Shown: piece after piece, positions 34,516 to 47,457 of the stretch
Position numbering within the stretch: position 1 is the stretch's first letter
Layout of the letters: each line of letters opens with the position of its first letter
NCBI RefSeq assembly: GCF_044324785.1
Contig: NZ_CP172127.1
Direction: 5' to 3' (one strand)
Source of the DNA: Escherichia coli
Lineage (GTDB): Bacteria > Pseudomonadota > Gammaproteobacteria > Enterobacterales > Enterobacteriaceae
Length of the DNA: 64,000 nucleotides
Position numbers and translations under genes: made by a program
The notes under the pieces: generated by a model
Seen by the model: the letters and a program-made list of their open reading frames with translations, nothing else
Databases searched by the model: none
What the model was told of the DNA's origin: nothing

Positions 34516-34738
34516 TTCTAAACGCTGCACTTTTTTACCTATCTCTTAAATAGTCATTTTCAATACAACTTTTTCTTTTTCATCACAGCCTTAATGCTCC
34601 TTAGATAATAATCATTATCTAACAATGAGATACCTAATTCTTAGCGTGCCTGTTAACCCACACATCAGGGTCTATGCTTATTAAAAGCAGGAAAAAAGCA
34701 TGTTTTACGGTAAAGCCCCTGCGTTTGCTGGGTTGAAC

Positions 34739-34753
34739 TGATAATCATTATCA
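34739..34753 (+). promoter_or_regulatory. Fur box in the sufA promoter (TGATAATCATTATCA)
   Basis: canonical GATAAT/ATTATC inverted repeat about 45 bp upstream of the sufA ATG; the suf operon is Fur-repressed. Confidence 0.7.
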
Positions 34754-42073: not shown

Positions 42074-43486
42074 TTACAGGACGTGAACAGATGCGGTGTT
42101 AGTAGTGCCGCTCGGTACCAGTGCACCAGAAACCATAACTACGACGTCACCTTTGTGTGCCAGACCGCTCTGCAGAGCCAGTTCTTTACCCAGACGGTAG
42201 AAATCATCAGTAGAAGTGATCTCTTTAACCAGTTGCGGTACAACGCCTTTGCTCAGTACCAACTGATGAGCCGTTTTTTCGTTGGTGGTCAGTGCCAGGA
42301 TGGTGGCATCCGGGAAGTATTTACGTACTGCGCGAGCAGATTTACCGCCCTGGGTAGCAACCACGATCAGCGGAGCATCCAGTTTTTCAGCAGTTTCTAC
42401 GGCACCACGGCATACCGCTTCGGTAATGCGCAGTTTACGGTTGTCATTGTTGAACTCGAGACGGCTGTTCATCACGCGGTCGGTACGTTCGCAGATGGTC
42501 GCCATGATAGAAACCGCTTCCAGCGGGTATTTACCTTTTGCGGATTCACCAGACAGCATCACTGCGTCAGTACCGTCGAGGATGGCGTTTGCAACGTCAC
42601 CGGCTTCTGCGCGAGTCGGGCGTGGGTTTTTGATCATGGAATCCAGCATCTGGGTCGCAGTGATAACGACTTTACGTGCACGGATACATTTTTCGATCAT
42701 CATCTTCTGGGCGAAGATAACTTCTTCTACCGGGATTTCTACACCCAGGTCGCCACGCGCAACCATGATGCCGTCAGAGGCTTCGAGGATTTCGTCGAAG
42801 TTGTTGAGGCCTTCCTGGTTTTCGATTTTGGAGATGATGTGGATGTTTTCGCCGCCGTGCGCTTTCAGGTGCTCACGGATTTCGATAACGTCAGAACGCT
42901 TACGAATAAAGGAAGCAGCAACAAAGTCTACGCCTTGTTCGCAACCAAAGATCAGGTCCTGTTTGTCTTTTTCAGCCAGTGCTGGCAGGGCAATGGAAAC
43001 GCCAGGCAGGTTCACACCTTTGTTTTCACCCAGGTCGCCGTTGTTCAGCACTTTACAGATAACTTTGTTACCTTCAATGGCAGTAACTTCCATACCGATC
43101 AGACCATCGTCAACCAGTACAGTGTTGCCAACAGACAGGTCAGTTGTGAAACCTTCATACGTTACCGCAACCATTTCGCTGTTGCCGATAACAGATTTAT
43201 CAGTGGTGAAAGTAAAGGTCTGACCAGCTTTCAGAGAAACGTCGTTACCGCCTTCCAGTTTCATGGTGCGGATTTCCGGACCTTTGGTATCAAGCAGGAT
43301 AGCGGCGGTTTTACCAGTTTTGCTCATCACGTTGCGCAGATTCTGAATGCGCTGACCGTGTTCTGCATAGTCACCATGAGAGAAGTTCAGACGCATAACG
43401 TTCATGCCAGCGTCCAGCATTTTAGCTAACATCTCTTCAGATTCGGTTTTCGGTCCGATGGTGCAAACAATTTTGGTCTTTTTCAT
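42074..43486 (-). CDS. pykF: pyruvate kinase I
   Basis: ORF track 42074..43702; internal ATG gives the 470-aa [24 protein letters not shown] protein. Confidence 0.95.
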
Positions 43487-44042
43487 GACAGTCTTAGTCT
43501 TTAAGTTGAGAAGGATGGGAGAAACTTGCTTTCTGGGCGCACTGCCGGAAAGCGAATCCGGTATTACGAAAGTGGTGGTGCCTCGCTCTAAGGATAGGTG
43601 ACATCGAAAAAGCGTGCAGAGGAATGTGTGCTTGTGTCTCAGCCCAACGTGAGTGCCTGTTTTTGAGTCGTTGAGTTCTACAGTCCAAAGTGCTGAAACC
43701 ATTCAAGAGTCAATTGGCGCGCATTATACGCTGAAATTAATCCAAAAGGAAAACAAAAACAGCGTTTCAAAAAACATACAACTTGTTAGACAATAAATTG
43801 TTATCAAAGATTTAACGTTCCAGGGAAAAGGTTACGCAAAAACTTCGCTGTTTGCGCAACGTCTGGTGCCGGGGTTGTCACTGTGAAGATAAGTGAAAGT
43901 TCATCCGGTGTATAAATACATCATCGCTCAATTGCTACAGTTAAAATAATTTATCGCGTTATTTGTCTGATTTTGTTTGATTTTTGTCTAATTGGTTAGA
44001 TTGATATATGCTGATAGTTGGCATGATAAATAGGTATAAAGA

Positions 44043-44252
44043 ATGGGAAATCGGACAAAAGAGGATGAACTGTACCGAGAAATGTGCAGAGTTGTCGGTA
44101 AAGTTGTGCTGGAAATGCGCGATCTGGGGCAGGAACCAAAGCATATTGTTATCGCAGGTGTATTACGTACAGCATTAGCCAATAAACGCATTCAGCGCAG
44201 TGAGCTGGAAAAGCAGGCGATGGAAACCGTCATTAACGCACTGGTAAAATGA
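44043..44252 (+). CDS. fumD: small fumarase-like protein (YdhZ/FumD)
   Basis: 69-aa ORF matching YdhZ. Confidence 0.75.
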   Translation: MGNRTKEDELYREMCRVVGKVVLEMRDLGQEPKHIVIAGVLRTALANKRIQRSELEKQAMETVINALVK

Positions 44253-44256
44253 CCAT

Positions 44257-44290
44257 TCAGGATGAGGCGATAAGCTTCATCCTGATATTC
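44257..44290 (+). terminator. hairpin after fumD (CAGGATGA-loop-TCATCCTG)
   Basis: 8-bp inverted repeat right after the stop, followed by ATATTCTTGCTT; moderately T-rich. Confidence 0.5.
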
Positions 44291-44492
44291 TTGCTTCAGT
44301 TGCGGTCCAGTTAATCATTCTAAATAACAACTGCTGAAATTATACGAATTTCGATATGTGTTTTAATTTATAACGATAATATTATTTTTATTTTCTGCTA
44401 TGAATGTCACAAATAATTGTCGCTTAAGTTAAATTTATTTCAAATGATAATAAATATCAGTTCACTTATAATTTCTTGCTTTGTAATTTTAA

Positions 44493-44506
44493 TTGATAAC
44501 GATCAA
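44493..44506 (+). promoter_or_regulatory. FNR-box upstream of ydhY (TTGATAACGATCAA)
   Basis: perfect TTGAT-N4-ATCAA consensus about 200 bp upstream of the ydhY ATG; the ydhYVWXUT operon is reported to be FNR-activated. Confidence 0.7.
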
Positions 44507-44707
44507 TGTTAAGGGCTCAGAATAATCACATTATTTTTTCTCCTAACCATAAAGGATTAGTTTATCGGCGTTAAATCTTTTCTCATACACTATCGGGTTA
44601 GGGAAAATATCTGGTGTTGGGGACAGAGTCAGCAGCGTATTAGTTGAATGCTTAATATCAGGCTGCTGAATTGTCAGCACTGTGTTTGCGAAGAGGATGC
44701 GAAATAA

Positions 44708-47457
<2,750 letters not shown>

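Follow-up and report, generated by a model that had tools for sequence, protein, structure and literature searches.

The AT-rich fumD-ydhY spacer of Escherichia coli: an FNR-dependent, H-NS-bound control region with a conserved Fur box and predicted NarL/NarP and ModE sites

In the 64-kb stretch of E. coli DNA analysed here (64,000 nt; the window), a 455-bp spacer at 44253-44707 separates fumD, which encodes a protein of 69 aa and ends at 44252, from ydhY, which starts at 44708. These are exactly the coordinates given in the original prediction, which was made from the sequence, and the ORF calls and the RefSeq annotation agree on them. The order fumD-ydhY is the one annotated in RefSeq for near-identical E. 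coli genomes as well as for K-12. Moreover, 801 bases around the spacer were found with 95-100% identity, annotated as fumD then ydhY, in 5,425 of 5,426 complete E. coli genomes. The spacer is 99% identical to that of K-12 MG1655, in which it lies in the reversed orientation. Eight of the nine small differences between the two strains are located in or before the AT-rich tract described below; the Fur, FNR, -10 and NarL/NarP sites are the same in the window strain and K-12, and the 5'UTR differs by one base. As predicted, the spacer does not contain an ORF of at least 60 aa, the longest internal ones being 45, 31, 22 and 21 aa. The ydhYVWXUT oxidoreductase operon (Mo-bisMPT, Fe-S, cytochrome) is controlled from this spacer, i.e. 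the feature is real and biologically meaningful. This control region is already characterised, and its AT-rich, FNR-dependent and H-NS-bound nature has been published in all three respects; thus, the spacer finding itself is not a discovery. As a separate observation, the distribution of ydhYVWXUT is patchy and the operon has been flagged as a genomic island.

The spacer consists of four parts, i.e. the fumD terminator, an AT-rich tract, the core promoter and the ydhY 5'UTR. A terminator scan identified an intrinsic terminator on the plus strand directly after the fumD stop codon (44257..44295), in which a GC-rich hairpin with a 12-bp stem (44257-44285) is followed by a T-rich tail. The RNA fold of this terminator has a free energy of -20.9 kcal/mol (z = -4.4), and none of 200 shuffled sequences was equally stable. 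In other Escherichia and in Citrobacter, a hairpin and a T-tract of a different sequence are present in the same place after fumD.

The GC content of the spacer is 32.3% compared to 49.9% for the whole window. The strong AT-richness that had been predicted was borne out by calculation of the AT content: the region 44330-44470 has a GC content of 21.3%, a value as low as this is reached by 0.1% of the equal-sized windows, and the spacer core is the only deep low-GC trough within the 64 kb. We delimited the AT-rich upstream regulatory tract to 44300..44492. These 193 bp have a GC content of 22.8%, the lowest in the window, as in an extended H-NS-silenced region well below genome GC, and they are rich in TpA steps, the frequency of which is 0.13 compared to 0.047 in the window (2.8-fold excess). 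The inferred ydhY transcript (44542-44707; start derived from the published FNR position of -42.5) begins downstream of the tract; the tract is upstream of the promoter and untranscribed, and the term leader, which had been applied to it, is a misnomer. In a simple scan, promoter-like hexamers occurred at about the shuffled rate (7 versus 4.4 +/- 2.5).

For comparison across species, we scanned one genome per species with YdhY, which gave 30 loci from Escherichia, Citrobacter, Leminorella and Limnobaculum, and column conservation in the spacer was calculated from a 20-sequence alignment. In this alignment, conservation is only ~50-65% over most of the AT tract, which is interrupted by sharp blocks. 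Sharp blocks in and around the tract and promoter correspond to the Fur box (44444-44462), the FNR box (44488-44508) and the -10 element (44526-44535); further sharp blocks are present at 44543-44559, at 44595-44605, in the ribosome-binding region (44681-44707) and at the TCACAAA sequence (44407..44413, about -132). Read as a CRP-like half-site or as an IHF site, TCACAAA gave weak matches only, and both assignments were rejected. Between the footprints, the sequence of the tract is poorly conserved, yet it is AT-rich (13-37% GC) in every species examined. In Budviciaceae, the Fur box, the FNR box and the 7-2-7 site occur in the same order and with the same spacing as in E. coli, the UTR is only ~100 nt long and GAAGAGGATGTGAAWTAAATG is present at the start codon. 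The translation initiation region on the plus strand (44681..44710), with the Shine-Dalgarno sequence GAGGA at 44693-44697 and the ydhY ATG at 44708, is nearly invariant (conservation at least 0.91), and its GAAGAGGATGYGAAWTAAATG sequence is also present in Budviciaceae. We attribute the near-invariance of the last 27 nt before the ydhY ATG across families to the ribosome-binding region; of the conserved blocks, this is the least explained.

The perfect FNR box that had been predicted is present: TTGATAACGATCAA at 44493..44506 matches TTGAT-N4-ATCAA at all specified positions. No other site in the 64-kb window does so, and ~0.13 such matches would be expected by chance. All 27 Escherichia and Citrobacter loci have a perfect FNR box, located 162-248 nt before the ATG, while the box in Budviciaceae has one mismatch. 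Myers et al. (2013) list the ydhYVWXUT FNR site at -42.5, credited to Partridge et al. (2008), i.e. at the position of a class II FNR-activated promoter, and report FNR ChIP-seq and ChIP-chip peaks at ydhY together with a Δfnr/WT ratio of 0.25. The predicted FNR site TTGATCGTTATCAA, given in their Table S6 at U00096.2 position 1752702, equals the FNR box in the window; therefore, the offset between the old and new K-12 coordinates is 1976. Using this offset, their FNR ChIP-seq peak converts to ~44520 and their sigma-70 ChIP peak to ~44566, which is ~24 bp downstream of the inferred start. The sigma-70 occupancy at ydhY in the same study was 47 under aerobic and 177 under anaerobic conditions (~3.8-fold).

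From the published FNR site centred at -42.5, the ydhY transcription start is placed at 44542 on the plus strand (K-12 1754642), which gives a 5'UTR of 166 nt (44542-44707) with a GC content of 41%. By its distance from the FNR box and from the inferred start, the -10 element is assigned to C-ATTATT on the plus strand (44529..44535), inside the conserved block at 44526-44535. The C of this element is at -13, and a C at -13 fits sigma-S promoters. A preference for sigma-S in vitro has been reported for the ydhY promoter. By contrast, a reading of CAGCAC-N5-TTGC as a sigma-54 promoter was rejected because the -24 GG varies across species in the alignment.

Immediately downstream of the start, TAACCAT-AA-AGGATTA (44544..44559, +3..+18) is a predicted NarL/NarP 7-2-7 site, i.e. 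two inverted TACYYMT heptamers 2 bp apart, with one mismatch per heptamer and a conservation of 0.93. It is one of three matches to TACYYMT-NN-AKRRGTA with at most two mismatches in the 64 kb. In Limnobaculum (Budviciaceae), the 7-2-7 sequence is closer to the consensus (TACCCCC-TT-AGAGGTA in locus L025 and TACCCAC-TT-AGAGGTA in locus L026) and begins 52-53 bp after the start of the FNR box, which is the same offset as for the E. coli site. Partridge et al. (2008; Microbiology 154:608) report repression of ydhYVWXUT by NarL/NarP, and we infer from motif and conservation that NarL/NarP may exert it through 44544-44559.

A second conserved block in the transcribed region, GGGTTAGGGAA (44595..44605, +54..+64), was detected as an alignment footprint. 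Its complement is found at +1..+7 (CCTAACC). The block may serve as an additional NarL-type heptamer or, in the RNA, as the 3' half of a stem at the 5' end. Counting pairs between +1..+7 and +55..+61, we found 94% of the cells paired and almost invariant, with a single compensatory case, which is in a paralogue. Because both segments are nearly invariant, an RNA stem and inverted DNA heptamers are indistinguishable here.

Within the AT tract, TGATAATAAATATCA (44445..44459, centred at -90) fits the 7-1-7 TGATAATnATTATCA / 19-bp Fur consensus; of the 14 positions specified in the 7-1-7 form, 13 match. Two 7-1-7 matches with at most one mismatch are present in the window, i.e. this Fur box and the sufA promoter box at 34739, which served as the positive control for the scan. 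The column conservation of the Fur box is 0.96 and the box is conserved across three genera groups; in Budviciaceae, it reads TGATAATGAATATCA or TGATAATGAAAATCA and lies ~50 bp before the FNR-type box TTGATAACGATCAC. In the uropathogenic strain CFT073, the summit of a Fur ChIP-seq peak (1910890) is 11 bp from the Fur box (1910865-1910879), and RNA-seq in this strain gave ydhY ratios of 0.07 for fur-/wt and 1.0 for ryhB-/wt, and of 0.11 for the double mutant. Based on this ChIP peak and these ratios, we conclude that Fur activates ydhY directly, ~14-fold and independently of RyhB. A Fur peak at ydhY has also been reported for MG1655, but in that strain the operon RNA was below detection.

Further upstream in the tract, the inverted repeat CGATATGTG-TTTTAA-TTTATAACG (44352..44375, centred at -178.5) is a predicted ModE-type site. 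The consensus of the ModE operator is CGnTATATA-N6-TATATAnCG, to which this repeat has three mismatches and the corresponding repeat in K-12, CGGTATGTA-TTTTAA-TTTATAGCG, has two; the repeat thus has the pattern of a ModE operator. It is the sole match with at most four mismatches in the 64 kb, and three mismatches or fewer are reached by just 0.4% of shuffled AT cores, while sites of the K-12 quality are expected by chance once or twice per genome. Among the 27 loci with a perfect FNR box, 24 have a match with at most three mismatches; in locus L011 of Citrobacter sp. Cu233, the match is perfect. Moreover, the distance between the ModE-type site and the FNR box is fixed, i.e. 141 bp in Escherichia and 148-154 bp in Citrobacter. 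We checked the pattern on K-12 and found exactly one site each at modA (two mismatches), moaA (one), dmsA (one) and napF (two), with the next-best site at each of the four having six mismatches. At napF, the match precedes the NarP 7-2-7 site by 89 bp, which agrees with the known ModE position of -133.5.

YdhV is reported to be a bis-Mo-MPT enzyme, the first described with such a cofactor; control of ydhY by ModE would make sense because YdhV carries this cofactor. No text linking ModE to ydhY was found in the literature covered, outside which the ModE SELEX and site-prediction papers fall. Judged from the repeat and its conservation, ModE is predicted to bind at -178.5. The conserved, predicted ModE-type operator at this position, together with the counter-silencing model set out below and the cross-genus base-level map, is modest new content.

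The binding of H-NS and Fis had been predicted for the tract. H-NS binding at the spacer is well supported: in the compilations by Panyukov and Ozoline (2013) and Curran et al. (2017), the spacer is H-NS-bound in the Grainger, Kahramanoglou and Oshima ChIP data. These three ChIP studies uphold the prediction for H-NS. Evidence for binding of Fis was not found, and Table S6 of Myers et al. records no enrichment of H-NS, Fis or IHF over the 14-bp FNR site. The ydhY/ydhZ spacer is also among the 78 'promoter islands' of Panyukov and Ozoline (2013; U00096.2 1752593 + 318 bp); using the offset obtained from the FNR site in Table S6 of Myers et al., this 318-bp island maps to ~44298-44616 and overlaps the AT tract. 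In Table S7 of Myers et al., the average of the FNR ChIP-chip peak at ydhY rises significantly from 0.29 to 1.82 (~six-fold) in the Δhns ΔstpA mutant, with the authors' caution that cross-linking efficiency may lie behind such rises in this strain. Finally, overproduction of SlyA causes a 2.5-fold induction of ydhYV-T, even aerobically (Curran et al. 2017). SlyA is a known H-NS antagonist.

The tract contains neither an H-NS nucleation motif nor phased A-tract curvature: a scan of 44300-44500 for the H-NS high-affinity motif (TCGATAAATT) with at most two mismatches gave no match, and the curvature check that had been proposed with the original prediction did not reveal a significant 10-11 bp phasing of AA/TT in the tract (p = 0.28). 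A silencing effect of H-NS on ydhY is plausible.

Altogether, it is likely that the spacer is a composite promoter within H-NS-bound AT-rich DNA, reading oxygen, nitrate, iron and, probably, molybdenum. According to this model, transcription of fumD would end at its own terminator (44257-44295), and a sigma-70/sigma-S promoter would fire at ~44542, needing FNR at -42.5 under anoxia. In the presence of nitrate or nitrite, NarL/NarP at +3..+18 would block the promoter. H-NS/StpA would coat the 193-bp tract, thereby lowering the access of FNR and RNA polymerase and leaving the operon nearly silent. Inside this H-NS-bound tract, Fe2+-Fur (-90) and, probably, molybdate-ModE (-178.5) would counter silencing or aid FNR, and SlyA may counter-silence too. 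The 166-nt 5'UTR would add a highly conserved ribosome-binding region and a dispensable hairpin. As a result, the enzyme would be made only without O2 and nitrate and with iron and molybdenum cofactors at hand. Fur and ModE may work by anti-silencing, as proposed here, or by bending or contact with RNA polymerase. The most specific version of this model, in which Fe2+-Fur at -90 and molybdate-ModE at -178.5 would each counter silencing sequence-specifically, make the tract accessible to FNR and so form a 'cofactor checkpoint', is put forward tentatively, as a possibility.

A simpler reading, and the one in the original prediction, is that the AT tract is an H-NS/Fis silencer from which anaerobiosis as such lifts repression. 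The presence of H-NS in three ChIP studies and the higher occupancy by sigma-70 under anaerobic conditions are consistent with this reading, as is the gain in FNR occupancy without H-NS/StpA (from 0.29 to 1.82). The relief by anaerobiosis fared less well: the perfect class II FNR site and the Δfnr/WT ratio of 0.25 explain the anaerobic response, H-NS/StpA still restrict FNR in the anaerobic wild type, enrichment of Fis is not recorded, and the conserved Fur, NarL/NarP and ModE-type sites show input from further signals. We consider this reading unlikely. The anaerobic response is better described as class II activation by FNR, with H-NS setting how accessible the template is, and better candidates than anaerobiosis for the relief of silencing are Fur, which has its ChIP peak inside the AT tract, SlyA and possibly ModE. 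Alternatively, the AT-richness may be incidental, reflecting the operators and UP-like DNA, or a horizontal relic, with H-NS binding opportunistically and to no regulatory effect, and with Fur and ModE being ordinary activators or architectural factors. The consensus sequences of Fur, ModE and FNR are themselves AT-rich, and the patchy distribution of the operon and its genomic-island flag, as well as the lack of an H-NS nucleation motif and of a curvature signal in the tract, would be accommodated. ModE, moreover, works from -133.5 at napF, where H-NS is not known to have a role. However, the DNA between the footprints has diverged and is nevertheless 13-37% GC in all species examined, FNR occupancy changes six-fold without H-NS/StpA, and SlyA overproduction induces the operon; together, these observations make incidental AT-richness a doubtful account of the tract.

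The remaining reading is that ydhY is controlled by a riboswitch/attenuator, an sRNA or a small protein encoded in the spacer; a small ORF or sRNA had been left open in the original prediction. The 5'UTR is long (166 nt) and its last 27 nt are nearly invariant. Mutually exclusive hairpins (CAGCAGC/GCTGCTG versus TGCTGA/TCAGCA), a weak terminator-like call at 44664-44679, the complementarity between +1..+7 and +55..+61, and a 19-aa ORF that ends at the ydhY start point in the same direction. The RNA-level and coding ALTERNATIVES comprised Rfam, consensus folding, pair counting and small ORFs. A scan of 43400-45400 against Rfam at E <= 10 returned only a chance snoRNA match (E = 9.7). Consensus folding of 23 5'UTRs by RNAalifold gave -4.8 kcal/mol and no compensatory pairs, and the minimum free energy of the E. 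coli 5'UTR compared to shuffled sequences indicated no extra stability (z = -0.57). Neither a covariance model nor a covarying structure places the spacer among known cis-regulatory RNAs or sRNAs. A variable, long hairpin in the 5'UTR on the plus strand (44614..44680) folds in most species from differing sequences. In C. koseri, a deletion between two GTGTTG repeats has removed this hairpin, and Budviciaceae lack it; it therefore appears dispensable. The small ORFs fared no better and were rejected one by one: the 19-aa ORF, with its ATG at 44648 and its end exactly at the ydhY start, is broken or start-less in many Citrobacter; a 9-aa uORF starting with GTG is variable across species; a 22-aa ORF begins upstream of the inferred transcription start; and a 45-aa antisense ORF spans a 1-bp indel that distinguishes the window strain from K-12. 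The alignment shows no conserved ORF within the AT tract. In total, there is no Rfam match, conserved ORF or convincing conserved RNA fold to back a small ORF or sRNA, and control of ydhY by an RNA element or small protein is very improbable. We retain the composite promoter within H-NS-bound DNA as the preferred reading.

The signals that gate ydhYVWXUT narrow the conditions for a substrate search to those in which O2, nitrate and nitrite are absent and iron and, probably, molybdate are present. Gating by multiple inputs may also explain why ydhYVWXUT is nearly silent in laboratory cultures of K-12. If Fur and ModE do displace H-NS, the ydhY promoter would offer a compact model for the combined action of specific regulators and a nucleoid protein at one promoter; ydhY would then be a new member of the ModE regulon and the second case in E. 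coli of anti-silencing by Fur after ftnA.

The closest known system is PydhY of E. coli K-12 (Partridge et al. 2008; Myers et al. 2013), i.e. the same locus with 99% identity; the ModE-type site and the cross-genus footprints were not found in the published text on it that was examined. At ftnA, Fe2+-Fur reverses silencing by H-NS (Nandal et al. 2010), and the same authors have suggested this for appY; in the literature searched, a proposal of anti-silencing by Fur for ydhY was not found. Like ydhY, ftnA is regulated positively by Fur, independently of RyhB and through a site that precedes the core promoter and lies in H-NS-bound AT-rich DNA. However, ftnA has several Fur boxes, whereas ydhY has one strong Fur box and a requirement for FNR, and anti-silencing at ydhY is suggested by analogy. 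The napF and dmsA operons likewise encode anaerobic molybdoenzymes and share with ydhYVWXUT an FNR site, Nar heptamers and a ModE-type operator, the last being predicted at ydhY. The ModE operator of napF is far upstream, and the ModE-type site of ydhY, at -178.5, is further upstream still. The ydhY promoter differs from those of napF and dmsA in that NarL/NarP would repress from downstream of the start and in that Fur and H-NS are added. Finally, the spacer, being H-NS-bound, SlyA-responsive and itself listed as a promoter island, resembles the H-NS-silenced AT-rich promoter islands (Panyukov and Ozoline 2013) and hlyE and fimB, which SlyA counter-silences; it differs in having promoter-like hexamers at about the shuffled rate and in containing a well-defined, conserved and productive promoter with sites for specific regulators.

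Among the loci recovered with this query (L002-L031), ydhY with this promoter architecture was found only in Escherichia, Citrobacter and a few Budviciaceae. The YdhY proteins of Escherichia and Budviciaceae share 87-88% identity, and this suggests that the operon spread horizontally along with its control region. The N terminus of YdhY itself (window 44708-44830) contains the Tat-like motif TRLEFLRISG, with RL where RR would be expected, followed by a hydrophobic stretch that ends in the lipobox-like LLGC.

Citrobacter sp. NCU1 has two ydhY loci, the second of which (L024, 3300-4000) retains the Fur-like box, the FNR box and the ribosome-binding region, lacks the ModE-type site and most of the 7-2-7 NarL/NarP site, and has no fumD upstream. 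In Citrobacter koseri (L019), the central hairpin of the 5'UTR (equivalent to window 44614-44675) is precisely absent, as though a deletion had occurred between the two GTGTTG direct repeats, and the UTR is 113 nt long. In Citrobacter sedlakii (L021), TTA replaces TAA immediately 5' of the ydhY ATG and, therefore, an upstream ATG-started frame (MRNWPGYGCQHCVYEEDAKL...) continues in-frame into ydhY. Moreover, four Citrobacter loci (L011, L017, L018 and L029) have a palindromic insert of 19-20 bp directly 3' of the 7-2-7 site, e.g. TACCCGTGTTTAGGGTA; this insert looks like an additional, putative pair of Nar-type heptamers set 4 bp apart.

Within Escherichia, one complete E. coli genome (strain EC2341, locus L037) has an IS1 element inserted in the AT-rich core at the position corresponding to window 44398-44406, i.e. 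between the predicted ModE-type site (44352-44375) and the Fur box (44445-44459), and thus the upstream site is split from the promoter. For the Fur scan, the two boxes upstream of sufA, the start codon of which lies at ~34798, served as a positive control only: a perfect 7-1-7 box at window 34739-34753, ~45-60 bp upstream of sufA, and a second, weaker box at window 34606-34620, ~180-190 bp upstream.

The divergent fumD-pykF spacer (window 43700-44042) is AT-rich as well, with 29-32% GC, and is marked 'HNS' in a table of constitutive promoters from genomic SELEX. In the window, the frame of pykF is open far 5' of the usual start, giving an ORF of 542 aa; in the K-12 annotation, the small gene ynhH lies directly upstream of pykF.

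Finally, the fumD-ydhY spacer contains a conserved block, TCACAAA, at window 44407-44413 (~-132). The flanks of this block are loosely palindromic (ACAAATAATTGT; the Citrobacter version is CAAATATTTG), and the block together with its surroundings bears a weak likeness to CRP or IHF sites.
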